Of a DNA stretch of 57,838 nt, positions 1-57,770 are shown one piece after another. The number at the start of each line of letters is the position of its first letter. The first letter of the stretch is position 1. The notes under the pieces are model-generated. The model was not told the DNA's origin. It did not search any database and worked only from the letters and a program-made list of their open reading frames with translations. A program made the position numbers and the translations under genes. The DNA comes from a virus (lineage: Duplodnaviria > Caudoviricetes), in the IMG/VR virus record IMGVR_UViG_3300047181_000043, positions 1 through 57,838 of that record; one strand, given 5' to 3'.

Positions 1-107
1 CGTCCCGGAGGTACAGCTTATTAGCTACTACTAACATATGTTTATAATGAATGCGATTCATACGCGATACTAAAGATATCGCATCTTTCTCTTGAAAAAC
101 TGTAATG

Positions 108-810: not shown

Positions 811-984
811 CTATTTCAGATCCATTAGTGTGTCGTTGTGGTGGATACCGCTTATGGTTGCCGCTAAGAATGGATATGAGCACATTTGGTCATACCCATT
901 TTTATAGGTAGCGTTTTTCTTTGGTTTAACCACTTTTCCCACAATGGATATTAGTTGCTCTATAGTCTGGTATGGTTTACTCAT
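811..984 (-). CDS. 57-aa hypothetical protein directly after attC (cassette 3 ORF; possibly frameshifted)
   Basis: Manual translation MSKPYQTIEQ...LMDLK*; AAGGA upstream of ATG; below the ORF-track length cutoff. Confidence 0.55.
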   Translation of the reverse strand: MSKPYQTIEQLISIVGKVVKPKKNATYKNGYDQMCSYPFLAATISGIHHNDTLMDLK

Positions 985-1004
985 TACATATCCTTATTTC
1001 GTAT

Positions 1005-1066
1005 GCCTAACGCTGAGGTCTACTGCAACTCGCATTTGGGGTTGTCAGTAGCACCGTTTGTTAGGC
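1005..1066 (-). other. attC-like integron cassette recombination site, 62 bp
   Basis: Minus strand: R'' GCCTAAC, spacer AAACG, L'' GTGCTACT (one extra G), G, extra A, CAAC, loop, GTTG, C, L' AGTAGAC, spacer CTCAGC, R' GTTAGGC. Confidence 0.85.
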
Positions 1067-1400
1067 TATGGGTTTCTTTGCAGTCCCTAATTGAGCATAG
1101 GACTTTTGGTGTTTTGTGTTCGTTGTATTCTACCATATCAAACGCTTCCTTTAGTGTTTTGTATGAGTTGATCCAATTCTCAAAAAAGTTCTCATCACAA
1201 ACGCTCCATAATTGTTCGCCAGTCTCATCATTATGATGGACGCAAATAATCATTGGGGTTACTCGCTCCCACATTACCGCTTTACCGCATTTTGAGCACC
1301 ATGTTTCTCTGTAGTTTCGCTCGATCCTTACACTCAGATTTTGGTGATGCTTTCCGTCATGGTGGACTTTTACAATTTCTACTAAACTTCGGCCGCGCAT
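1020..1400 (-). CDS. Hypothetical protein, cassette 2 ORF (CxxC motif; reads into attC)
   Basis: GGAG SD before ATG at 1400; flanked by GTTAGGCTA...TAGCCTAAC. Confidence 0.7.
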   Translation of the reverse strand: MRGRSLVEIVKVHHDGKHHQNLSVRIERNYRETWCSKCGKAVMWERVTPMIICVHHNDETGEQLWSVCDENFFENWINSYKTLKEAFDMVEYNEHKTPKVLCSIRDCKETHSLTNGATDNPKCELQ

Positions 1401-1414
1401 TGTATTCTCCATTA

Positions 1415-1446
1415 GCCTAACGCAGAGGTATCACCGTTTGTTAGGC
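1415..1446 (-). other. Internally deleted attC-like site, 32 bp
   Basis: GCCTAAC-AAACGGTG-AT-ACCTCTGC-GTTAGGC: both arms nearly identical to the 1005-1066 site, central stem missing; upstream gene's TAA lies inside GCCTAAC. Confidence 0.75.
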
Positions 1447-1842
1447 ATCCTCTTGTTCGTGGGTGTACTCGATCTCATAATCACGCCCATCATCCTTGAA
1501 GATGGAAAAACGAATACCGTCAGAGTTTGGTGTAGCGATATACATAAAATCGTTAGCACCGTGTATCTTCACGCATCGAGGGGAATCCGTATCAGAAACA
1601 GATACAGCAAACACATCATCATCGGGTGAGCATATGCCAACGGACTCAATCAACTTATTGAATTCATCTAGTGTCTGTGATGAGTTATCAAAGAACTCGG
1701 TTAGCTTACCACTAGGAACGCCAACCACAGTAACGTGATGTAAATCTACAAGGGATATATAGACGTGCTTATATTCTCCATCCAATAATCGAGTATCAAC
1801 CCTGTTGTATGTTCCTGTAATGATATTTCCATTGGTTTCCAT
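1441..1842 (-). CDS. Hypothetical protein, cassette 1 ORF (133 aa)
   Basis: AAAGGAG SD before ATG at 1842; stop codon inside the R'' box. Confidence 0.75.
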   Translation of the reverse strand: METNGNIITGTYNRVDTRLLDGEYKHVYISLVDLHHVTVVGVPSGKLTEFFDNSSQTLDEFNKLIESVGICSPDDDVFAVSVSDTDSPRCVKIHGANDFMYIATPNSDGIRFSIFKDDGRDYEIEYTHEQEDA

Positions 1843-1874
1843 TGTTTCTCCTTTCATTTCTTTTCGTTTCGTAT

Positions 1875-2046
1875 GCCTAACATCCAAGTTACCCCCGGAT
1901 TTCACATCCGTGTATCCAGAAGAAACTCGCGTTTTATACGGATAATATAATAAAAATTCAGGATAAAACGTAAATATTTTCCGGATAAGACTAAAGATTC
2001 CCGCTTTATCCAGATCCGGATAATGCGAAAATTGCATGATAAACTA
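1875..2046 (-). repeat. ~172-bp promoter/leader/attI-like module, left copy (inverted repeat of 57390-57562)
   Basis: Reverse complement aligns to 57390-57562 with about 20 differences by manual alignment; TTATCC repeats, AT-rich promoter-like tract, leader hairpin, ends GGGTAAC-TTGGAT-GTTAGGC. Confidence 0.95.
2039..2045 (+). promoter_or_regulatory. Putative late promoter ATAAACT (other copies: 7928, 21999, 23404, 26776-, 26791, 30797-, 33431, 35425, 44836, 57391-)
   Basis: Recurs just upstream of virion genes; analogous to the T4 late promoter TATAAATA. Confidence 0.75.
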
Positions 2047-2768: not shown

Positions 2769-3700
2769 TGCTTAAACGAAATACTACAGATGGTGAAATC
2801 CGATATTATCAGGATAGTTTGGATAATATTGATGAAATACTACGTGACTTAGGTTGTGTAACTAAGGATGGTAATATTACCAAGTCTTTAAAGTTGCGGA
2901 AGGTTGTGGGTAAATATCAAATCCCAAATTCTAGTTATTATAGTCCGTGTATAGACGTTACATATGAAAATAAGACTGCTAAGATTATTCGGGGTAGTTC
3001 TGATGTATTTCAGTTTACCGGGAATCTTTATGATTTAATTCCACCGATGAAGTGGTTTGGTCGCCTGGTAGATAGTGTAACGATAGATGGACATGAATTT
3101 AGTCCGGATTTTGTAGTTGATGGTGATGTAATAAGAAATGGTCAGGGAATACGAATTGCTGCGGGTACATTTAGAGAATCGGCTGAAACCTCGTCTATGG
3201 CTGCTAATTTTTATATGGGGTGTAATGATTCCCGAGGTGGTGCTGCTCTGCCGCTGTTAAGGGGATATCGGGATTTTATATATAGATTAGGATTTGGTAC
3301 AGAACCTATAGTTGGATTTGCCGATCTTAATGAATATGTATCGAGAATGTCATTGGATAAGGCGTTTAAAGTATCTGGAGCATTGCCTACATGTGATTAT
3401 TTATTGAACTTCTCGGAGATGGGAAGTAAGATGTATTCGAGATTAACTGAGGTGAAATCGAATAAGCAATTCAAATCAGAATTTATTTTTTCAGGAAAAT
3501 GCACCCCATCTGGTTCAAGTGGAATGAACGTTCCATATGTGATTTTTTATCCAGGCCCGATTCAGATTGCTGGCACAAAATTGTTGCAACGGGCATATCA
3601 GATTCAGGAATATAATATAAATATGGCTATCGGATTGTTCAGTACTACTCCACCATTTGTTAAGAATGGGTTAAATTTGTTAGGTAACAAAAAAAGTTAA
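2768..3700 (+). CDS. Hypothetical protein, coupled to gp25
   Basis: 310-aa ORF, TAATG overlap; no motif recognised. Confidence 0.7.
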   Translation: MLKRNTTDGEIRYYQDSLDNIDEILRDLGCVTKDGNITKSLKLRKVVGKYQIPNSSYYSPCIDVTYENKTAKIIRGSSDVFQFTGNLYDLIPPMKWFGRLVDSVTIDGHEFSPDFVVDGDVIRNGQGIRIAAGTFRESAETSSMAANFYMGCNDSRGGAALPLLRGYRDFIYRLGFGTEPIVGFADLNEYVSRMSLDKAFKVSGALPTCDYLLNFSEMGSKMYSRLTEVKSNKQFKSEFIFSGKCTPSGSSGMNVPYVIFYPGPIQIAGTKLLQRAYQIQEYNINMAIGLFSTTPPFVKNGLNLLGNKKS

Positions 3701-3780
3701 TAAATTGCTGTTTTCGGATCAACAAAAACCAATATTGTTAATAGTTAACAATATTGCGCCCAGTGGGCGAAGGATCAGAT

Positions 3781-5043
3781 ATGGCAAAGAAAAACCAATC
3801 CGCGGAAAGTTCCGCACCATCATATTTTTCATCCCTCAAGAAGATCAAGACCGGAAACGAGCTTGCTGATTCCGGTAAGAAGTTAGTCATCGCCGACTAC
3901 ACTGATACTGGATCTCTTATTCTGAACGTAGGCCTTACGGGAGATCTGACGAAGGGAATTCCTTCCGGAAAGGTTATCATGCTTGCCGGTGAAAAGCAGA
4001 CCGGTAAAACCTTTATTGCCGCTTACTGCTACTGCAGACCGCTACAAAATAAGGGTTACTTTATTTTCTGGATCGATACCGAAAATGCGATGGATGACGA
4101 TCGCTTGGCCGGTTATGGTTTGAATCCTGATGGATTTAGAATTATCAAGGAAAACATCGCCGAACAAGTTCGCTTCCAGGTAAATACAATTCTCGATGAA
4201 ATTGAAGAATTGAAGAAGAAGGATCCAAATCTTAAGGCAGCGATTGTGCTTGATTCCCAGGGACAGATGTCTACCATGAAGGCCGTTTCCGATACTGAAA
4301 AGGGTGAGAAGAAGCAAGATTATACCAAGCAGAAGGAACTCAAGACGTTTTATAATCTGACTACCCATCGCCTGGGTGTATTGGATGTTCCTATGTTGGT
4401 GACTAACCACGTTTATGCAGATGTGAATAATCCATTTGCTGGTAATACTAAGGTTATCAGTGGCGGTGAAGGTGGAATGTTTTCCGCTGAAATTATTTTC
4501 TACTGTCGTAAATTTGCACATAAGGATGGAAAATCTGGTCCGAAGACAGGCATCATTTTTGAAATGACTCTTTTCAAGAATCGTTTCTGTGAAGAAGGCA
4601 AGAAGATCCGTATGTACCTGGATAGAAATACTGGCCCAAATCGTTATTACGGAATTCATCTACTCGCCGAAGAAGCCGGCATTATCGAAGAATGGGATGA
4701 AAAGAAGCATGAAAAGAAGGGACTGAAACTTCCTGAAAAGATTGATAAGAAAGACCGCAAGGCATATGTTATCAAGATCGGAACTGAAGTTGTTAATTGG
4801 AAGGTGGTCTGGGATAAATTTGTATATACTCCAGAAATTACCGATGCTATATCTGAAGATTTACAGCGCTGGTTGGATAAGGCGTTCAAATTGATCAATC
4901 CAATCAACTTTCTCAAGGAAAATCCTGATTATGTTGACGGAATCGATCTTTCCGAAAAGGAAGTTGAGGATGCTGCAGCATATACAGACGAGCTCGAGGT
5001 TGAAGCGGGAAAGAAAGTGGATTCTAAGAAATCTAAGCGATAA
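3781..5043 (+). CDS. uvsX: RecA-like recombinase UvsX
   Basis: TDTGSLILN, Walker A GEKQTGKT, IDTENA, IVLDS, TNHVY, SGG; ATG at 3781. Confidence 0.92.
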   Translation: MAKKNQSAESSAPSYFSSLKKIKTGNELADSGKKLVIADYTDTGSLILNVGLTGDLTKGIPSGKVIMLAGEKQTGKTFIAAYCYCRPLQNKGYFIFWIDTENAMDDDRLAGYGLNPDGFRIIKENIAEQVRFQVNTILDEIEELKKKDPNLKAAIVLDSQGQMSTMKAVSDTEKGEKKQDYTKQKELKTFYNLTTHRLGVLDVPMLVTNHVYADVNNPFAGNTKVISGGEGGMFSAEIIFYCRKFAHKDGKSGPKTGIIFEMTLFKNRFCEEGKKIRMYLDRNTGPNRYYGIHLLAEEAGIIEEWDEKKHEKKGLKLPEKIDKKDRKAYVIKIGTEVVNWKVVWDKFVYTPEITDAISEDLQRWLDKAFKLINPINFLKENPDYVDGIDLSEKEVEDAAAYTDELEVEAGKKVDSKKSKR

Positions 5044-5047
5044 CTAT

Positions 5048-5071
5048 AAGGGGGCCTAACGGCCCCTTTTT
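5048..5071 (+). terminator. Intrinsic terminator
   Basis: GGGGCC-TAAC-GGCCCC-TTTTT. Confidence 0.85.
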
Positions 5072-5104
5072 ATTTGTTATCTTTGTTATTCATAACATTT
5101 TTAA

Positions 5105-5113
5105 TTATCTTTG
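5105..5113 (+). promoter_or_regulatory. Putative early/middle promoter element TTATCTTTG (other copies: 5077, 17150, 22480, 27392, 30772, 35390-, 39618-, 40441; variant 12764)
   Basis: Exact 9-mer upstream of replication/recombination genes on both strands; fits TAnnTTTG. Confidence 0.8.
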
Positions 5114-5119
5114 TTTTAG

Positions 5120-6871
5120 ATGAACCAAACTGTCCCAAATCCTTTAGCATATCGACCACTGGCCCCGCCTGTCGGCAACTTGCCAATGCAAGTGGGGGTT
5201 CCTGGAATCTCAAGTAATGATATTGCTATGTCATCGTTCATGACTCAGGAAGACATTGTTCTTCGTCATATAATGGCAGATTTTTCGCTACAAAATCGCA
5301 TCGTAGCACATTTGGACCAAGAATTATTTGAATTGGATGATAATAAGCACATATGCTATGCGATTCGAGAATATAATAAAAAGTTCTCTAGGTTTCCGAC
5401 ATATCAGGAAATAAAGCTTACTCTACCCCAGGGATCCGTAGCTTCTTATCATCTTGACCAGGTAATGGCATATCCGATGACAAGCGTGGGGCCGGAATTT
5501 ATTCATCATACCGTGATGAAGTTCTTCAAAACTCGAAGAACCAAACAAATTCTAATCAAAGCCGCCGAAAAGATTCATTCGGATCGTATTGATGATATTG
5601 ATTCCATTGTTCCTGAGCTAGAGAAGGCCCTAGGATTCAATCTTGTCAGTGGGGTAGGCTTCGACCTTATCGATGACTTAAGGACCCTCCTGCTCAAGAT
5701 GAAGGCCATTGCCAATGCCATTCCTTCCGCAATATCGGAACTTAACGCCGCCACCAAGAAGAAAGGCACTCACGGCGGATACTATAAGAAAGCGGTTTCC
5801 CTTTATATGGGTCAACCGAATGTAGGAAAAACTCTATTTCTATGTAATGATGCCGCCCACGCCTTCCGGCTAGGTTATAATGTTCTTTATATTTCACTTG
5901 AAATGGCAGAAGAACTACTTGCCGAACGCGTTATAGCCAATCTATGTAATGTTCCAATCTTTGATGTTGTCGATTATGATGCAGATGATCTTACTGATCG
6001 ATTGAATAAGAACTTTACTGAAGAAAACACTCCAGGTAAGTTCTTTTTTCGTAGGCTTCCTACTACCACAAATCCAGCCGATATCGAACGCTGTATAAAT
6101 GAAATTCTTTTGACCAAGGCCGTCGCCATTGACCTGGTTGTTGTTGATTATCTAGGCATCATGAAGCCACAGAAACGCGCTGGAGTCGATACCAATTCCC
6201 TATATTCTATCGGTAAGGATGTTATTGAACAACTCCGCGATATGGCGGATAGAACAAACACTGCAGTTCTCACCGCATCTCAGATGAATAGAGATGGATA
6301 TGACGAATTGATGGCATCCCTTAAAAACACTGCAGGTTCCGCTGGAATCAACGAGACAGCTGACCTGATTGTAACCATTGCCCGGGATGCTGCGCTTAGA
6401 GAACGTAACATGTTCTTCCATATGATTCTAAAAAATCGATTTGGTGAAAACTGCCAGGTATTCCATTCAGAATTTGAACGAAAATATATGCGAGTCACTG
6501 ACGCAACCCAATCTAGCGTTGATGGATATCATCAAACTCTCGGTGCTAAACAGGTCGATATTAAGAACTTTACCCGAGTGGCTAGTTCTATTCCTGATAT
6601 AAGTGGAAAATCAAAGGAAGAGAAAAAAGAACAGGAACAAAAATATATCGAGAAATTTGGCGGTGCCACTAATCCAGTATATGCTCCCGAACAACACTAT
6701 CCACTAAATCCGGAAATAATCCCAGAGGCCACCAATGCATTTACAGGATTGGTTGCACTTGATATTGACCCGACCCATTCCAACGGACCTATGACTATGG
6801 CTGAAGTTTCCAATATGCCAAATAGATCCCTAGCCGAAGCCGCTGCTAATTTTGGAAGAAATTTCAGATGA
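5120..6871 (+). CDS. gp41: Replicative DnaB-family helicase, gp41-like
   Basis: GQPNVGKT, VLYISLEMAEE, VVVDYL, TASQMNRDG, LKNRFG. Confidence 0.92.
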   Translation: MNQTVPNPLAYRPLAPPVGNLPMQVGVPGISSNDIAMSSFMTQEDIVLRHIMADFSLQNRIVAHLDQELFELDDNKHICYAIREYNKKFSRFPTYQEIKLTLPQGSVASYHLDQVMAYPMTSVGPEFIHHTVMKFFKTRRTKQILIKAAEKIHSDRIDDIDSIVPELEKALGFNLVSGVGFDLIDDLRTLLLKMKAIANAIPSAISELNAATKKKGTHGGYYKKAVSLYMGQPNVGKTLFLCNDAAHAFRLGYNVLYISLEMAEELLAERVIANLCNVPIFDVVDYDADDLTDRLNKNFTEENTPGKFFFRRLPTTTNPADIERCINEILLTKAVAIDLVVVDYLGIMKPQKRAGVDTNSLYSIGKDVIEQLRDMADRTNTAVLTASQMNRDGYDELMASLKNTAGSAGINETADLIVTIARDAALRERNMFFHMILKNRFGENCQVFHSEFERKYMRVTDATQSSVDGYHQTLGAKQVDIKNFTRVASSIPDISGKSKEEKKEQEQKYIEKFGGATNPVYAPEQHYPLNPEIIPEATNAFTGLVALDIDPTHSNGPMTMAEVSNMPNRSLAEAAANFGRNFR

Positions 6872-7948: not shown

Positions 7949-8131
7949 ATGAAACGCATGAAAGTAGTACGAGTGACAAAGGAAGAGTTCGAGCTTGAGG
8001 ATGGCACCGTCCAGCCCATGATCGTGGATCTGGGCTATGTCCCAACCGTTGAAGAGTTCCAGCAGATGCTGGATGAGTCCTGCAAATTCGCAGGTATCGA
8101 GGTTGAGGAAGACAAAGATGCCAGTAAATGA
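7949..8131 (+). CDS. 60-aa acidic accessory protein of the IS607 element
   Basis: AGGAG/GAGG SD; overlaps the tnpA start. Confidence 0.7.
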   Translation: MKRMKVVRVTKEEFELEDGTVQPMIVDLGYVPTVEEFQQMLDESCKFAGIEVEEDKDASK

Positions 8132-8777
8132 AAATGACAGGATGATACGCATTCGAGAAGCATGCGAGATGCTTGGTGTTCACCAGAACACGTTGCGTAT
8201 GTGGACGGAACAGGGGAAGATCCAAGCATACCGTGGTGAGAACTCTGATCGTGGTCAGAGACGTTACCGTATTGGTGACATCAAAGCACTGCTTGGTATG
8301 AAGCAGTTGGATGCACCAGTTGAAGCACTTCCTGTAGCCATCTACTGTCGTGTGAGTTCACATGACCAGAAAAAACATGGTGACTTAGAGCGACAGAAAG
8401 GAAGGATGCTGGAATTCGCAGTACATAAGAAGTACCACGTCGAGTACATACTGGATGAAGTTGGTTCTGGACTTAATGATAAGCGAAAGAAGCTACATAA
8501 GTTGATGGAACTGGCAGAACAACATAAGATATCCAAAATCATAGTGGAACATAAGGATCGGCTGACTCGTTTCAACTACGAGATCCTTGTCCGTTTCTTC
8601 AACAGCCACGGAGTTTCCGTTGAATATGTGGAAGAAACGCTTGGTGGTACGTTTGAAGCGGAACTGGTGAAGGATCTACTTTCCCTCATCACCGTGTTTT
8701 CAGCGAAGCTGCATGGCAAGCGGAGCAAGGAAAACCGTGAGCGCACTAAGAAGATGAAGGAAGACGGATTGCTATGA
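8118..8777 (+). CDS. tnpA: IS607 transposase TnpA (MerR-like HTH + serine recombinase)
   Basis: IREACEMLGVHQNTLRMW HTH; YCRVSS, EVGSGLN, EHKDRLTRF, ELVKDL...FSAKLHG. Confidence 0.95.
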   Translation: MPVNENDRMIRIREACEMLGVHQNTLRMWTEQGKIQAYRGENSDRGQRRYRIGDIKALLGMKQLDAPVEALPVAIYCRVSSHDQKKHGDLERQKGRMLEFAVHKKYHVEYILDEVGSGLNDKRKKLHKLMELAEQHKISKIIVEHKDRLTRFNYEILVRFFNSHGVSVEYVEETLGGTFEAELVKDLLSLITVFSAKLHGKRSKENRERTKKMKEDGLL

Positions 8778-10582
8778 AGCACTTGGACAACTACAGGGAA
8801 ATGGATTCCACCTACTCGGTGGCATTCTTTCCCCACATGTTGTCCAGAAGCAAGAAGCGTGAGATCCTTCGCATGGCGAAGAAGATCCTTGCACTCAGGA
8901 ACGAAATATCAGAAATCGTACAGGGTGACCTGTTAAAGTTCCTGAACATGAGCAAGTTCGAGTTCTTCAACTACTTCAATCCGATCCTATCAGGAAGGAT
9001 CTCCAGTCATTTCATCAAGAAGATCATGGAAGATGTACATGAAGCATACCAGAGAAGATCCGAAGCGATAGATAAGCATATCCAGTTCCAGATAGTAACC
9101 TCATTGACTCCTGTATTCTACAAGCGTAGAACCAAGGACAAACAGGTTGGTGACCTGAAATCAATCACCAGAAAAACCAAGAAGACTGACATATCGATCA
9201 CATTAACCTACCTTGCTCGTTATGGTCATACGGGAACATTGCAGTTCCTTCGTGGCGCAATAGAGAATACAGAGGTCAAGGAAGACAAGACGTGGTTTTA
9301 TCTTAAATTGTTGGACATGTGTGATCGTTATGGATTTGGTAGGTTGATGACACTCGCTATGTCAAAACGTGAGCAAGTATATTCTCGTTACGAGGATCGT
9401 GGTGCTATCTGCTTCAGTTCCCTATCGTTCAAGGGAAGATCAAGAATAACACGTCCTATCGTAGCTCGTTCCTCCAAGAAGAATTCTAGGATCAGTCACT
9501 TCGTTGAGTTGTCATGGGAGTGGTCAGAGACGAAAGGTAAACGGAAGAAATCTGACACGATGTGCATTCCTGTTAAGTATAATGCTAAGTATCACAGGAA
9601 CCTAAAAAGATACAGCAACGGAACAGATACCAGCTATACGGTAGTTGTCCGTGGTAAAGATATTCATGTTGTGCTTACCCGTGATGGTAAAAGGTATGTA
9701 CCACTAGCAGAAATAGAGCAGGAGAAAGTTGTTGGTGCTGATGTGAATCAGAAGCATAACATGCTTTCCTGTAGTGATGGATTCACTGTAGATCATAACA
9801 GAGAATTGATTGATGATCTACAGAAAGAACTACTGAAGATAGATAAGAATCGGGAAGTCCACGACAAGCATCAGAAGCTCATCATCGAAGCCAAGAAGCA
9901 GGAAGCTAGGGATTCCGGTGACAAGTATATCAAGTCCAAGAAAGTTGCATACAAACCTACTCGTAAGGAACTTCGGATAATAGATGCATTGTCACGCAAG
10001 AATACCCACTACCAAGAACAGAAGATTGCAGAAATACTGAATCATATGGTGGCTTGTGGATTCAACCACATCGTCCTTGAGGACTTGGATGGATTCATTG
10101 GTGCGAAAACATATGGTGACACCGAAGGTGGTGTGAATACAGGTCGTCTTGGTAAAGCTCTACAACTTTCATCAATCAAGGATATCATTCTCCACATGGC
10201 AACCAGATACGGTGTTTCCGTGTCTCTAGTGCATAAGGAATATTCATCGAAGCAATGTCCGTTATGTGACTGCATCGATGACCTGAACAGGACATCACAG
10301 GAGAAATTTGTTTGTGTGAGATGTGGTTACAGTGATAACGCTGACCACAACTCATCAGTTAATTTGAAAATCCGGCTTACCTCGACCGTGTTAAGAGGGA
10401 AGTTGCTCACGCAACAGACTACCGGATACAGTGCGTTCTTGCCAAAGAACCTTCCTAGATGGAAGGTGAAGGATGCTCTGGAAAAATATCGTCATGGAAT
10501 GGATCTCGATCCATTCGGAAACTTCGTGGAGCCTAAAGTGGTCAGAAATGACCACTATGAAGTTCTGTTAGGTTTGCAGTGA
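8774..10582 (+). CDS. tnpB: TnpB RNA-guided nuclease, long form (602 aa), RuvC triad intact
   Basis: VVGADVN, IVLEDL, CPLC...CVRC zinc finger, NADHNSSVNL. Confidence 0.92.
   Translation: MKHLDNYREMDSTYSVAFFPHMLSRSKKREILRMAKKILALRNEISEIVQGDLLKFLNMSKFEFFNYFNPILSGRISSHFIKKIMEDVHEAYQRRSEAIDKHIQFQIVTSLTPVFYKRRTKDKQVGDLKSITRKTKKTDISITLTYLARYGHTGTLQFLRGAIENTEVKEDKTWFYLKLLDMCDRYGFGRLMTLAMSKREQVYSRYEDRGAICFSSLSFKGRSRITRPIVARSSKKNSRISHFVELSWEWSETKGKRKKSDTMCIPVKYNAKYHRNLKRYSNGTDTSYTVVVRGKDIHVVLTRDGKRYVPLAEIEQEKVVGADVNQKHNMLSCSDGFTVDHNRELIDDLQKELLKIDKNREVHDKHQKLIIEAKKQEARDSGDKYIKSKKVAYKPTRKELRIIDALSRKNTHYQEQKIAEILNHMVACGFNHIVLEDLDGFIGAKTYGDTEGGVNTGRLGKALQLSSIKDIILHMATRYGVSVSLVHKEYSSKQCPLCDCIDDLNRTSQEKFVCVRCGYSDNADHNSSVNLKIRLTSTVLRGKLLTQQTTGYSAFLPKNLPRWKVKDALEKYRHGMDLDPFGNFVEPKVVRNDHYEVLLGLQ
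10434..10579 (+). ncRNA. TnpB omegaRNA scaffold overlapping the tnpB 3' end (5' boundary uncertain)
   Basis: Hairpins 10449-10467, 10497-10516, 10537-10556 (GAAA loop); stem 10520-27/10557-64; pseudoknot-like pairing 10531-36/10568-73. Confidence 0.8.
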
Positions 10583-12796: not shown

Positions 12797-15700
12797 ATGA
12801 CACAACGAAATTCAAATTACCTCCCACTGAAGCTCACCAAAAACGCTATCAAGGTACTCGAAGCGCGATACCTGAAAAAGGTCGAAGGAAAGATCGTAGA
12901 AACCCCAGAAGATTTGTTCTACCGAGTGGCTGACGCCATGGCCAACGTCGATGAAAGATATGGCGCGAGTGCCGAAGAAATCGAAGCACTTCGCGTTAAA
13001 TTCTACAATATGATGGTAGAAGGAAAGTTCATGCCAAATAGCCCCGCACTGATGAACGCGGGAAAGAACAATGGCAACAGCTTCTCTGCATGTATTCACG
13101 GAGATTCACCGGTGTTGACTAACAGTGGTTATGTGCCTATGCGAGAAATATATGACCGGGTGAATTCAGGCGAGACTGTTATTGTATCTAATGGATTTAA
13201 TGAATGGGTCCCTGTATTAGCTGCCATAAATCAAGGTATTAAACCAGTATATAGGATCAATACACGAGCAGGTCGTTATGTAGATTGTACTTTAGATCAT
13301 AAATTCTATACATTCGAGCCAGGAAATAGAGATAATGGTGCATATGAAACCGGAAGCTTTAAATGGGCTCCCATTGGAGAAATTCCTTGTGGTAGGAGGT
13401 TGGCATATGGGATGCAGTCACCAATCGTGGAAGATAATAATGAAATTGATTCGGAGATAGCGTTAGCCGCCTGGATATTAACTGATGGAGGTTGCGGATG
13501 GTACAAGCAATCTAAGGGAACTACAGGGGAGTTTTTTGTTGGTGAAATTCAAGTTATAGATGATCGATCCCTAGATAACGTTATTAATCATATTAACAAG
13601 TTGGGATTTTCATATACACAAAAAGATATTTCAGGTGTGGGTGGAGTAGAACGATTTACTAGAATCAGATCATATGATAGAAAATTAGCTAAGTTTTGTG
13701 AAAAATTTGAGTTATTTAATAGAACTAACACAAAAATAGTGTCTTCCTTAATAAGAAATTCTTCGTATTCAAATAAGAGAGAATTTTTGCGAATCGTATT
13801 TGAAGCAGATGGATGTATAACAGGAACTGGAATAGGATTTCAATCTGTTTCTCAAGTATTAGTTGAAAACATTTCTGAGATGTTAGATTTATTTGGGATT
13901 GCTCATACCATAAATTTCAAAAAAGAACGCCGGGTAGGGAGATTGGATGGTTGGTCAATCCAAATTAATCACACCCGAAGTATCTTATTGTTTAAGGAAA
14001 GAATTGGGTTTATATCTGATCGTAAGCAATTGAAATTATCACAATGGCCGGAAAAGAATCCATATCCAGAAAATATAAAATATGTAGGTAATGAATATTT
14101 AGGTGAAGATGAAGTATTTGATATTCAAACCGCTATAGATGGGAATGGGAGTTTTGTTGTTGATGGTATTATTGTACATAACTGTTTTGTCCTACCTCTC
14201 AATGATTCTATTCGTGATATATTTACAACTGCTTTGAATACCGCCCTTGTACAGAAGGCTGGAGGTGGTACGGGATTTAGCTTCGACAAGCTTCGGCCGA
14301 CAGGCGATTTTATCAATAGCTCCGGTGGAACTACATCAGGTCCTATTTCCTTTTGGAAGGTACTCGCAGAAACTACCAATTCAATTCAGCAAGGATGTTT
14401 TGTAGGATCTACCCTTATTGGAATGCCTGGTCAGAACAAGCAGATCAGAGACATTAAAAAAGGTGATGTTGTCTATTCATATGATACTAATATAGGACAT
14501 GTAGTGTATAAGAAAGCTGCGTGTGATGCGTTCAAGACTAAAGAAAACGCACCCGTTTTTAAACTCTCAACGAATCGAGGACTTGATGTTTTCGTTACAG
14601 AAAATCATCAATTCTTACTTCGTAGTAATGATTACATAGAATTAAAGGATTTAGATTCTCGTTTGCCTATAATGTCCCTACTTCGCCGATTGGACGTTTC
14701 TCAAGTCGATGCCACATACCCAGCACAAACAACTGATGGAATTGATTATTCATTTGTGTCAAATAACTATTTAGATTCTGTATATGACACCGTAGTTGCG
14801 TCAATTGAATTTTCACATCATGAAGATGTGTGGGATTTTGAAGTTGAAGACACTCATAATTTTAGCGTGGTAGGAAATGATGGTGAGGGTATATTTGTAC
14901 ATAATTCCATGCGTCGCGGTGCAAACATGGGTATGATGACCATTACCCATCCTGATATTCTCAAGTTCATCACAGCCAAGCAAGATCTAAGTAAGTTCAC
15001 TAATTACAATATTTCGATCAAGATTCCCGATGCCTGGATGGTCGAGTATAAGAAATGTCCAGATGCTCCACACGTCGCTATTAATTTCCGTACTGGAGAT
15101 CGTTATGTTATTCCAAAGACAGTTCCGATCGAAACATATGAAATCAATGAGTTGATCAGATATGAAGATTATGTAGAGGGTTCTGTTAAAATTTGGACCA
15201 TGCGCGAAATCTTTGGAATCATTATTGATTGTGCTTGGAAAACTGGCGAACCCGGTCTTTTCTTTATTGATAAAGTCAATGAAAAAAATGCAACTCCTCA
15301 CGTTGGTGAAATCGAGGCAAGTAACCCCTGCGGCGAATTACCCTTACTCCCATATGAAGCTTGCAACTTAGGATCGCTAAATATTGCTGCATTTGTTACT
15401 GAAAATGGTCTTGACTGGGAATCCCTCGGACAATATATCAGAACCGCAACATATTTCCTGGATACCGTTATTGACGCGAGTCCTTTCCCAATTCCAGAGA
15501 TCAAGAAGATGTGCGATGAGAATCGCAAGATCGGTTTGGGTTTGATGGGATTTGCTGATGCGATGTTCCTGTTAGGAATCTCCTATAATTCAGATGAAGG
15601 AATTGAGTTCGGTCGCAAATTGATGAAGTTCATTAATGATACTGCACTGGATGAATCTGAATCGATTGCCAAGAAGAAGGGAGTATTCCCTAATTATGTA

Positions 15701-17071
15701 GGATCTCGTTGGGAGACCGAATGGAACCGAACCTTACGTAATGCCGGAGTGACAACAGTTGCCCCAACAGGAACCATTTCAATTATTGCGGATTGTTCTG
15801 GTGGCATCGAGCCAATGTTCTCGCTGGCATTTGAACGTAACGTGTTAAATGGCCAGAAGTTAATCGAAGTGAATAAGATATTTGAGAAGGTTGCTAAGGA
15901 CCGAGGATTTTATTCTCCGGAACTTATGGAACGTTTGGCTAAGGAAGGAACGCTTCAACATATTGATGAAGTTCCTGATGATATCAAGAAAATCTATGTA
16001 TGTTCTCATGATATCGCTCCAGAATGGCATATCCGCATGCAGGCAGCCTTCCAGGAATCCTGTAGTTCTTCCATATCCAAAACAATCAATATGCCCCACA
16101 CGGCCTCCAGAGAGGATGTGGAACAGACTTACTTGATGGCCTGGGAGATGAATTGCAAGGGCATCACGGTATACCGTGACGGTTGTCGCGATATGCAGCC
16201 CATGTCGCTTAAGAAGGAATCTGCCAAGATGGAGATTCCCGAAGCCAAGGAAGAGGCTAAGCATATCGAGGAACAGCAGATCGAATTGCAAAATATTTTC
16301 GTAGGCGTTCCTGAAGGCCAAATCATTTCTGATGTTTCGTTCCCAGATCGTTCCCACTCGGAGACCTATGTTATCCGCGCCGGCAAGAAGGGTTCAAAGA
16401 CGCACAAGAAGATATATACAACCCTAGCATTCGCGGATAAGGATTTGACTCGTCCATTTGCGATGTTTGTTAATTCCAATTCGTTCACCTCGAATGAAGT
16501 CACTGATGAGATTGTGAAGATTCTGAAGGCGCTTGCTAAGGAAAAGCTTTCTGAGGATGCGATCCATGCTTTGCGCGAATCCATGAAGGGCCAGAGTAAG
16601 ATTTCCCAGTTGATCCACATAACATCGGCTGTCGCCACTGTGGGAGTGACTGCGCAAGATATCATAGCAGTTCTTCCACATGAGAACAAGACTGACGAGG
16701 ATCCTGTGGTGACGGCGGACATTATTTCAATTCTTACCAAGCTTGCTGCGGAAAAGGGAATTCGCAAGGAATTGGTAGAGGATCTTGAAAAGAAGTATCG
16801 CAATCAGGTTAACGTGGTCAAGATTGCTCGTTTGATAGGCATGTTGCTTCGTCATAACGTTCGAATCTCGGATGTGGTTGAATCATTCGACCAGGTGCAA
16901 TTCCCAGTTACCTCATTCGTTTTCCAGATCAAGAAGTTGTTATCCAAGTTCATTAAGGATGGCACTGAAGTGACTGGCAAAACAGGATGTCCTGAATGTG
17001 GTGGTAAGATGGTCTACCAAGAAGGGTGTTTGAAATGTGCATCCGGCTGTGGTTGGTCAAAGTGCAAATAA
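12797..17071 (+). CDS. nrdJ: Class II (adenosylcobalamin-dependent) ribonucleotide reductase with two inteins
   Basis: FMPNSPALMNAG, GGGTGFSF, RRGANMG, GEPGLFFID, SNPCGELPL, TTVAPTGTIS, KGITVYRDG, C-terminal CPECG...CLKC. Confidence 0.95.
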   Translation: MTQRNSNYLPLKLTKNAIKVLEARYLKKVEGKIVETPEDLFYRVADAMANVDERYGASAEEIEALRVKFYNMMVEGKFMPNSPALMNAGKNNGNSFSACIHGDSPVLTNSGYVPMREIYDRVNSGETVIVSNGFNEWVPVLAAINQGIKPVYRINTRAGRYVDCTLDHKFYTFEPGNRDNGAYETGSFKWAPIGEIPCGRRLAYGMQSPIVEDNNEIDSEIALAAWILTDGGCGWYKQSKGTTGEFFVGEIQVIDDRSLDNVINHINKLGFSYTQKDISGVGGVERFTRIRSYDRKLAKFCEKFELFNRTNTKIVSSLIRNSSYSNKREFLRIVFEADGCITGTGIGFQSVSQVLVENISEMLDLFGIAHTINFKKERRVGRLDGWSIQINHTRSILLFKERIGFISDRKQLKLSQWPEKNPYPENIKYVGNEYLGEDEVFDIQTAIDGNGSFVVDGIIVHNCFVLPLNDSIRDIFTTALNTALVQKAGGGTGFSFDKLRPTGDFINSSGGTTSGPISFWKVLAETTNSIQQGCFVGSTLIGMPGQNKQIRDIKKGDVVYSYDTNIGHVVYKKAACDAFKTKENAPVFKLSTNRGLDVFVTENHQFLLRSNDYIELKDLDSRLPIMSLLRRLDVSQVDATYPAQTTDGIDYSFVSNNYLDSVYDTVVASIEFSHHEDVWDFEVEDTHNFSVVGNDGEGIFVHNSMRRGANMGMMTITHPDILKFITAKQDLSKFTNYNISIKIPDAWMVEYKKCPDAPHVAINFRTGDRYVIPKTVPIETYEINELIRYEDYVEGSVKIWTMREIFGIIIDCAWKTGEPGLFFIDKVNEKNATPHVGEIEASNPCGELPLLPYEACNLGSLNIAAFVTENGLDWESLGQYIRTATYFLDTVIDASPFPIPEIKKMCDENRKIGLGLMGFADAMFLLGISYNSDEGIEFGRKLMKFINDTALDESESIAKKKGVFPNYVGSRWETEWNRTLRNAGVTTVAPTGTISIIADCSGGIEPMFSLAFERNVLNGQKLIEVNKIFEKVAKDRGFYSPELMERLAKEGTLQHIDEVPDDIKKIYVCSHDIAPEWHIRMQAAFQESCSSSISKTINMPHTASREDVEQTYLMAWEMNCKGITVYRDGCRDMQPMSLKKESAKMEIPEAKEEAKHIEEQQIELQNIFVGVPEGQIISDVSFPDRSHSETYVIRAGKKGSKTHKKIYTTLAFADKDLTRPFAMFVNSNSFTSNEVTDEIVKILKALAKEKLSEDAIHALRESMKGQSKISQLIHITSAVATVGVTAQDIIAVLPHENKTDEDPVVTADIISILTKLAAEKGIRKELVEDLEKKYRNQVNVVKIARLIGMLLRHNVRISDVVESFDQVQFPVTSFVFQIKKLLSKFIKDGTEVTGKTGCPECGGKMVYQEGCLKCASGCGWSKCK
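13091..14182 (+). mobile_element. Intein 1 in NrdJ, 364 aa, with LAGLIDADG homing endonuclease
   Basis: SA|CIHGDS...TLDHKF...IIVHN|CFV; AAWILTDGG and LRIVFEADG motifs. Confidence 0.93.
14396..14905 (+). mobile_element. Intein 2 in NrdJ, 170-aa mini-intein
   Basis: QQG|CFVGST...TENHQF...VWDFEVEDTHNF...FVHN|SMRRGA; no endonuclease motifs. Confidence 0.93.
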
Positions 17072-57389: not shown

Positions 57390-57562
57390 TAGTTTATCAA
57401 GTCAATTTCGCATTATCCGGATATGGATAAAACGGGAATCTTTAGCCTTATACGGAAAAAACTTTCGTTTTATCCGGATTTTTTATTATATTATCCGCAT
57501 AACGCGAGAGTTTTCTCCTGGATACACGGATGTGAAAACCAGGGGTAACTTGGATGTTAGGC
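57390..57562 (+). repeat. ~172-bp promoter/leader/attI-like module, right copy (inverted repeat of 1875-2046)
   Basis: Aligns to the reverse complement of 1875-2046; ends GGGTAAC-TTGGAT-GTTAGGC. Confidence 0.95.
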
Positions 57563-57578
57563 TAATGCGAGGAACATT

Positions 57579-57770
57579 ATGGACGCAAATCAAGTAGAAA
57601 AATCTCTTAGAACTCTTAGTGAATTACTCATATGCTTTCAATCTTGGGAACCTGAGTCTCGCGTTATGGGTAATGTGAAATCAAGTGACGCATCCGACGC
57701 TATAAGGATTTCAATAAATGCCATAATTAATAGTTACCTTTATTATAAAAATATATGTTATATTGTATAA
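57579..57770 (+). CDS. Hypothetical small protein, first ORF after the right attI-like site
   Basis: GAGGA SD; starts 16 nt after GTTAGGC. Confidence 0.65.
   Translation: MDANQVEKSLRTLSELLICFQSWEPESRVMGNVKSSDASDAIRISINAIINSYLYYKNICYIV

Follow-up and report, generated by a model that had tools for sequence, protein, structure and literature searches.

Can a T4-like phage hold small genes in the manner of a bacterial integron, and if so, which chemistry put them there? The question is raised by the left end of the window, by which we mean the whole stretch of DNA that was analysed, a linear sequence of 57,838 bp that makes up the entire IMG/VR virus record IMGVR_UViG_3300047181_000043. Three small open reading frames (ORFs) are found there on the minus strand behind a leader module, and hairpin sites separate them. 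An earlier note had read the locus as an integron-type gene-cassette array in a T4-like phage, and this reading stands on four observations: the hairpins belong to an attC family with covarying stems, the cassette ends follow one rule over 44 site pairs, the genes change directly after a conserved GTTAGG, and the model of the family matches the dfrA14 attC site of a class 1 integron. In our judgement the likely explanation is an integron-type platform that lacks an integrase beside it and resides in the genome of a very large T4-like myovirus. In the IntegronFinder definition, a cluster of attC sites lacking integron integrases (CALIN) contains at least two attC sites and no integrase nearby. 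The window has two such sites, 349 nt apart and one of them shortened, and no integrase in 57.8 kb.

When the minus strand was re-read, all elements of the array were found at the coordinates previously claimed for them. The leader module (2041-1876) abuts the start, at 2052, of a divergent gp25-like gene and ends in an attI-like site, GGGTAAC-TTGGAT-G↓TTAGGC (1894-1875; the arrow marks the junction), in which GGGTAAC occupies 1894-1888, TTGGAT 1887-1882 and GTTAGGC 1881-1875. This site forms the junction with cassette 1 (1880-1421), which runs from the TT of G↓TTAGGC to the G of the next R' box and contains ORF 1842-1441 (133 aa). A shortened attC (1446-1415) separates it from cassette 2 (1420-1011), where ORF 1400-1020 (126 aa, with a CxxC motif) runs at its 3' end into its own attC, the full-length site at 1066-1005. 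ORF3 (984-811, 57 aa) lies behind this last attC, with no covariance-model match downstream. Each cassette has a single ORF, and all ORFs of the array are on the minus strand, in the orientation of the attC top strand. The individual Shine-Dalgarno sequences proposed for the ORFs are present 5-8 nt before ATG (AGGAG for ORF 1842-1441, GGAG for ORF 1400-1020), and the distances from GTTAGGC to ATG are short as stated, being 32, 14 and 20 nt for ORF 1842-1441, ORF 1400-1020 and ORF3, respectively; the ORF listing has an additional upstream ATG of ORF 1400-1020 at 1412. The cassettes also appear to lack promoters of their own, as had been suggested, since a consensus scan of the minus strand gave no promoter-like site between 1947 and 767. 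The next one, at 767-740, is found upstream of gene 736-515 (phrog_3052). The shortening of the attC between cassettes 1 and 2 means that these two are probably now fixed together and no longer separable. ORF3 may be a gene that the phage already had downstream of the insertion point, as suggested by the lack of an attC behind it and by the promoter-like site of the next gene, or it may be a last cassette that has lost its site.

The full attC site (62 nt) is composed of R'' GCCTAAC, an unpaired spacer, an L stem with two bulges, a variable tip and R' GTTAGGC. Both window sites have R'' and R' as inverted and pairable boxes of the RYYYAAC/GTTRRRY type. The shortened site (32 nt, GCCTAACAAACGGTGATACCTCTGCGTTAGGC) keeps R'', the spacer, the GGT/ACC pairs and R', and is without the core of the L stem and the tip. 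The bottom strand of 1066-1005, which is the plus strand of the window, folds with a 7-bp R box, 5 and 4 unpaired nucleotides, an L stem of GGT/ACC plus 6 bp and a terminal stem-loop that constitutes the variable tip, and a C and a T are bulged out on the 3' arm opposite 5'-AAC-3'. The features described for folded attC sites are extrahelical bases near L'' opposite AAC, an unpaired central spacer and a variable terminal structure (Nivina 2016, PMC5027507). The bulged bases of the window site are at positions 15 and 22, the same 7-nt spacing as the extrahelical bases at positions 16 and 23 of attCaadA7 (PMC5027507). The fold of the full site has a z-score of -3.9 on both strands, and none of 200 shuffled sequences folded as well. 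The 15-mer GCCTAACAAACGGTG occurs exactly twice in the window, at the two attC sites. Likewise, GCGTTAGGC with at most one mismatch gives 11 matches against 4.7 expected, a number reached in none of 100 shuffles, and its two exact copies are again the two attC sites.

An exact-pattern scan for R''-L'' in viral, metagenome and genome contigs returned one further viral contig (L003), 40 metagenome contigs and one Fibrobacteraceae genome contig. Alignment of 41 non-identical sites gave an RNAalifold consensus of 20 pairs, 11 of which display compensatory double changes. The pairs of the L stem and the tip vary among 2 to 5 pair types, while the CTAAC/GTTAG pairs are invariant in all 41 sites. A covariance model built only from this alignment detected 85 sites at E < 1e-3. 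Besides the window and L003, 37 of the 40 metagenome contigs and L044 contribute sites, and with a single weak match on the opposite strand the orientation of the sites is defined. Run on the whole window with filters off, the model calls only two sites, both on the minus strand: 1005-1066 at 67.1 bits (E = 2e-14) and 1415-1446 at 37.8 bits (E = 3.5e-7), the latter with 51 model positions missing. The next match is on the other strand, with E = 0.62. Both sites are thereby recovered as members of this attC family, the second one as the deletion derivative proposed.

The same model recognises the dfrA14 attC from end to end with both bulges (28.6 bits, E = 1.2e-5), and this is the sole significant match in 10.9 kb. 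The match is direct evidence, at the level of sequence and predicted fold, of a shared attC architecture. BLAST of the attC against 72,556 plasmids gave no match.

How the cassettes were assembled is indicated by their ends. A cassette inserted as a circle opened at G↓TT will have a start that complements its own trailing R'' and not the R'' of the site in which it now resides. Such complementarity had been claimed for both cassettes, and the sequences are as then given. Cassette 1 runs GTTAGGCAT...ATGCCTAAC, its start complementing its own end (CAT/ATG at the module junction), and cassette 2 runs GTTAGGCTA...TAGCCTAAC, with ends complementary beyond the core; both of the two window cassettes are thus bounded by G↓TT. 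The rule holds more widely, as seen in 83 sites (the 85 model sites minus two cut by contig ends) that provide 44 consecutive pairs. The two nucleotides beyond the 7-bp core complement the cassette's own end in 39/44 and 32/44 pairs, while the same positions are complementary to the local hairpin partner R'' in only 18/81 and 25/81. The score is lowered where widely spaced pairs straddle a site that escaped detection, as some of them may do. The third position beyond the core matches the own cassette end in 2/44. Four more junctions in L003 obey the rule, one of them with a core mismatch, and its module junction reads TCA/TGA. The sites of the Fibrobacteraceae genome G007 obey it too, and the dfrA14 control cassette displays the corresponding complementarity, GTTAACCC...GGGTTAAC. 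As read from these junctions, the footprint is that of circular cassettes cut at G↓TT, which is predicted by IntI-type recombination and not by homologous exchange between repeats.

The leader module, about 166 nt, is present in three copies of 85-91% identity: at 2041-1876 on the minus strand, at 57395-57561 on the plus strand and at 5002-5168 in L003. The second copy faces outward at the right contig end and is 87% identical to the first and 91% identical to that of L003. All three can be aligned as far as ...GGGGTAACTTGGATGTTAGG and diverge completely after GTTAGG; the attI-like sequence is identical in all three up to this point, the junction falls at the same GTTAGG in each, and different ORFs follow. 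Behind the second copy the unit begins GTTAGGCTAATG and its first ORF is found at 57579-57770 (plus strand, 63 aa), where the contig ends before any attC. The circle rule holds in both of the first cassettes that can be read. The divergent neighbours of the copies are the gp25-like gene and genes for a 216-aa and a 274-aa protein without family match. The L003 contig is T4-like, with RNase H-like and SMC-like genes, and the 34-kb record that contains it (G001) has only IS607-like genes in common with the window. Since the neighbours differ and the genes do not overlap, the three copies represent three distinct loci, and for the same reasons the possibility that L003/G001 is allelic to the left array of the window was rejected.

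The leader had been described as a promoter module. The conserved module is indeed there, while the promoter itself, TTTACG-16-TATTAT at 1974-1947 on the minus strand, is a candidate for the part of Pc that reaches 9/12 in a sigma-70 consensus scan; it is conserved across the three copies and is surrounded by a 30-nt imperfect palindrome. Motifs resembling TTATCCGGA are found in both orientations, at least seven in the module at 1906-2032 and at least six in that at 57413-57502. With one mismatch allowed, the window has 37 matches to this motif, against 18 expected by chance over its full length, and 13 are within the two modules. The motifs could be operator or accessory protein sites for an uncharacterised DNA-binding protein. 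The half-sites GGGTAAC and GTTAGGC form an imperfect inverted repeat with a 6-nt spacer. The attI-like site had no fold in the folding test, as expected of a site that is used in double-stranded form. We know of no general consensus for attI sites, and the end of the module is best called attI-like by its position and the behaviour of the junction, not by sequence membership. BLAST of the module against 41 fetched loci and a scan of viral contigs with two module patterns both returned only L003. No match to the locus was obtained by BLAST in 50,697 phage records, and a search of viral contigs with the gp25-like protein retrieved no relatives.

A possible source of an integrase is indicated by the bacterial members of the family. 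One Fibrobacteraceae genome (G002) encodes an IntI that scores 303 bits against a TIGR02249 cut-off of 265 and is 34.6% identical to IntI1, and its attI region ends ...AAATGGGGTG↓TTAG. G007 has the same attI ending. Its long chromosomal contigs contain four strong model sites and some weaker ones, and cassettes of the family are spread over at least three contigs. The intI-like gene of G007 (C11:94342-95028, locus L055) contains one in-frame TAA and scores 140 bits, below the family cut-off, and may be a pseudogene. The integrase search thus came out positive in the bacterial genomes and negative in the phage fragments. These chromosomal integrons resemble the phage arrays in the attC family (68-80 bits), the cassette-end rule and the GTTAG attI junction. 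They differ in having intI next to attI, whereas the phage has no adjacent intI and a different leader. The family was found in 2 of 121 sampled genomes of Fibrobacteraceae, the same two being the only ones among 151 in the phylum sample; these counts are floors, given strict filters and incomplete genomes. We conclude from the sequence relationship that the sites are likely substrates for an IntI of the Fibrobacteraceae lineage. The sharing of the attC family with chromosomal integrons of this group also points to it as the lineage of the phage's host, which it probably is, and the attC family would then provide a host prediction for an uncultured huge phage.

In the mechanism that we propose, IntI would insert cassettes consisting of a Shine-Dalgarno sequence, a small ORF and an attC at the attI-like end of the leader. 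The enzyme would act on the folded bottom strand of attC, cutting AAC between A and C, which corresponds to G↓TT on the top strand, and the leader promoter would transcribe through the promoterless cassettes. The integrase would act in trans, its gene lying either in a chromosomal integron of the host or in a portion of the phage genome that the fragments do not cover. The architecture of the sites, the boundaries of the cassettes, the different cargo behind several copies of one module and the sharing of the attC family with IntI-bearing bacteria are observed. The supplier of IntI, any continued recombination in the phage, transcription of the array from the leader promoter and the functions of the cassettes are inferred.

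A bolder version, which we put forward tentatively and consider possible but doubtful, is that huge T4-like phages run a multi-platform integron of their own, with many leaders that each carry promoter and attI, served by one integrase encoded by phage or host. The 92 kb examined so far, of about 400 kb, contain three copies of the module. Such a system would allow the phage to exchange cassettes with the pool of the host and to shuffle early accessory genes, for instance for counter-defence, during infection.

Several observations weigh against an integron-type platform. No match to PF00589 or TIGR02249 at E <= 1 was found in either of the two phage records, the window and G001, which are about 14% and 9% complete, and neither has the adjacent, divergent intI of a complete integron. 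The IntI of G002 used as query retrieved nothing from viral contigs. One of the two attC sites in the window is shortened and none follows ORF3, so that the array may be decaying. The cassettes have a guanine-plus-cytosine (GC) content of 0.39-0.42 and the phage backbone one of 0.40, which leaves no compositional sign of recent import. Neither a search of the whole window at the Rfam gathering threshold nor one of positions 1-2100 at an E-value threshold gave an Rfam attC match, the only return being a chance Phe_leader at E = 0.67. Our own model misses the attC sites expected behind blaIMP-1 and blaOXA-392 (L076; best 7.2 bits, E = 2.2) and thus recognises one of three expected class 1 sites, which is not surprising for so narrow a model. 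The half-sites are 6 nt apart here and 3 nt apart in attI1 (L075), and the first bulged bottom-strand base is C, while it is G in the attC sites treated in the cited part of PMC5027507. The gene turnover anticipated at G↓TTAGGC among related phages was seen at the three module copies, that is among paralogous copies and non-allelic loci only. Finally, the host link depends on the two genomes mentioned above.

The lack of IntI in the fragments, the shortened attC, the last ORF without an attC and the uniform GC content would also fit an inert fossil, a piece of a bacterial chromosomal integron array that a single event of illegitimate or homologous recombination brought into the phage, with no integron chemistry ever at work there. 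Capture routes of this kind have been discussed for phage CALINs (section 3.4 of Qi 2023, PMC9892861). A single capture does not account for a phage-specific leader that is present at three loci with the same GTTAGG fused to different cassettes and that is, by BLAST, in none of the 40 bacterial-like metagenome contigs. Moreover, the first cassette obeys the circle rule in both the window and L003, which indicates recombination at the module itself and not the import of a ready-made array. We therefore regard a fossil as unlikely and retain the integron-type platform.

Shuffling without any integrase is known from phages of this group. In T4-like phages accessory genes are exchanged by homologous recombination via promoter early stem-loop (PeSL) repeats and mini-circles in hyperplastic regions, each PeSL unit having its own terminator stem-loop and its own strong, sigma-70-like early promoter (Comeau 2014, PMC4122927). 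The present hairpins resemble PeSLs in being repeated intergenic stem-loops around small accessory genes in variable T4-like regions, and circular intermediates have been proposed (PMC4122927). If they were terminator or regulatory stem-loops of this type, they should carry the corresponding signals, and neither a promoter-like nor a terminator-like call was made at 1005-1066 or 1415-1446 on the minus strand; there is no T-run signature. Homologous exchange does not predict complementarity of cassette ends far above the roughly 25% seen for the local hairpin, nor would it explain why the same family is found in IntI-bearing bacterial genomes and why its model matches a class 1 attC. A single leader promoter, the attC architecture and site-specific junction footprints set the array apart from PeSLs as described in that paper, and we find the PeSL explanation very improbable. 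Repeated promoter/stem-loop motifs in the hyperplastic regions of T4-like phages were reportedly noted already by Arbiol in 2010 (PMC2839356).

That a bacterial integron array was joined to a phage contig during assembly is barely credible, for although both contig ends lie in or near arrays and positions 1-105 of the window are 100% identical to a stretch of another contig, which shows that repeats break the assembly here, the left array has phage sequence on both sides within one contig (the gp25-like gene with UvsX to one side, the phrog_3052 gene at 515-724 to the other), an independent T4-like contig is built to the same design, and the GC content is uniform.

The integron-type platform has its closest published parallel in other phages. 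Integrons or parts of them have been reported in 21 phages, 17 of them as CALINs and some in virulent phages; methyltransferase cassettes occur among them, and IntI1 recombined five of six phage attC sites with attI1 (Qi 2023, PMC9892861). The earlier remark that no such description was known for T4-like phages must be modified accordingly: CALINs and integrons in temperate and virulent phages have been in print since 2023, and what remains is a new variant. The words 'T4-like' and 'jumbo' are absent from the accessible text of PMC9892861. Among the matches listed for literature on integrons in jumbo or T4-like phage genomes, attC sites go unmentioned. Like the CALINs of PMC9892861, the arrays have co-oriented small cassettes bounded by attC, a carrier of lytic type and no nearby integrase, and a related metagenome array (L038) contains a methyltransferase cassette. 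Unlike the CALINs described there, each array here begins with a conserved leader that occurs in several copies and combines a promoter-like site with an attI-like junction, at least two arrays are found in 58 kb of a T4-like carrier estimated at about 0.4 Mb, and the attC sites are tied to one bacterial family. Integron parts in phages being known since 2023, the novelty lies in architecture and scope and not in principle: a multi-copy promoter/attI-like leader without adjacent integrase, a huge T4-like carrier and the Fibrobacteraceae tie.

The class 1 integron loci (L075, L076) share with the phage arrays the G↓TT junction, the complementarity of cassette start and end, and a promoter upstream of promoterless cassettes. 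They differ in their intI, which the phage arrays do not have, and the repeat of the phage leader is TTATCCGGA and not a direct repeat of the GTTA type. Insertion of cassettes by IntI outside att sites has also been reported (bioRxiv 10.1101/2022.09.11.507474) and through such a reaction a host integrase could bring cassettes into phage DNA at a site that contains GTT; unlike the targets described in that work, the target here belongs to a module that is conserved and repeated and has an inverted half-site, and it looks dedicated, not like any GTT of the genome taken at random.

Integron cassettes constitute a vast pool of small adaptive genes, many of which have in recent work been found to be anti-phage defences. 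If the integron-type platform is real, this pool would be common to phage and host, and phages would plug into it for expression, beyond carrying stray sites. The leader module can serve as a search handle for similar platforms.

As to the cargo, each of the two window cassettes encodes a protein for which one homologue was found, 66% identical and on a 1.5-kb contig for ORF1 (1842-1441), 73% identical and on a 689-nt contig for ORF2 (1400-1020). The C-terminal residues ...DA of ORF1 and ...HSLT of ORF2 are encoded by the R'' box and are retained in the homologues, which suggests that these also precede an attC. Pfam and PHROGs gave nothing or E > 0.002 for the cassette ORFs and Atlas no usable match, and their AlphaFold models are poor (mean predicted local distance difference test scores of 46 and 50). 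By these comparisons the window cassette ORFs are best classed as ORFans. The anti-defence function once suggested for them found no support, there being no family, atlas or confident fold assignment. Our guess is that they are early accessory or host-interaction genes, and they are candidates for phage early or counter-defence functions.

The metagenome and genome arrays (L004-L044) have a different content, with FRG, DUF3800, AIPR, a Bpu10I-type endonuclease (RE_Bpu10I) and several DNA methylases, and in addition Fic/DOC, GNAT, PhzF-like and WYL/PafC proteins. This cargo is rich in defence genes, as is typical of chromosomal integrons, whereas the phage cassettes contain ORFans. In 89 long ORFs from these metagenome and genome loci, Phage_integrase was not among the 25 of 35 Pfam families listed. 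The L038 array mentioned above has four sites of the family (3300-6470) and is located on a 31-kb metagenome contig with a RecT-like gene upstream. It begins ...AATAG↓TTAGGTGG, and its first cassette has a promoter of its own, TTGACA-17-TATATT. Cassettes further along the array have genes for a radical-SAM protein and an N6/N4 DNA methyltransferase.

The carrier itself is, judged from its gene content, a fragment of a T4-like myovirus. Family scans identified a gp25-like baseplate wedge, a UvsX-like recombinase, a DnaB-like helicase, ribonucleotide reductase, a family-B DNA polymerase and a tail sheath, and the genes from 2052 to 55855 are nearly all on the plus strand. The CheckV completeness estimate of about 14% corresponds to a genome size near 0.4 Mb. 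Outward-facing arrays with the same module are found at both contig ends (1-2041 and 57395-57838), and such arrays may be frequent in the phage genome and fragment its assembly. At the left end, window 1-105 is 100% identical to L003 7534-7638 (G001 13792-13896), with all surroundings different. The L003 copy lies beside TnpB remnants, distal to the L003 array, and this repeat is probably the cause of the assembly break. A terminator-like hairpin is found on the minus strand just before it, at about 141-114 of the window.

An IS607-like pair occupies 8037-10582 on the plus strand of the window. Its TnpA (8037-8777) is a serine recombinase with a MerR-type helix-turn-helix (Resolvase, E = 2e-21), and downstream of it 8774-10582 encodes a TnpB/Cas12f-like protein of 602 aa. 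In G001 a related TnpA and a TnpB that is apparently split in pieces lie directly downstream of the cassette array. TnpA was considered as the recombinase of the array and rejected; it belongs to another family, and in bacteria the attC family co-occurs with IntI. The ORF for the large subunit of ribonucleotide reductase (12797-17071, plus strand) encodes 1,424 aa that match the family in three separate stretches, a pattern pointing to an inserted element, perhaps an intein, or to a fusion at the N-terminus.

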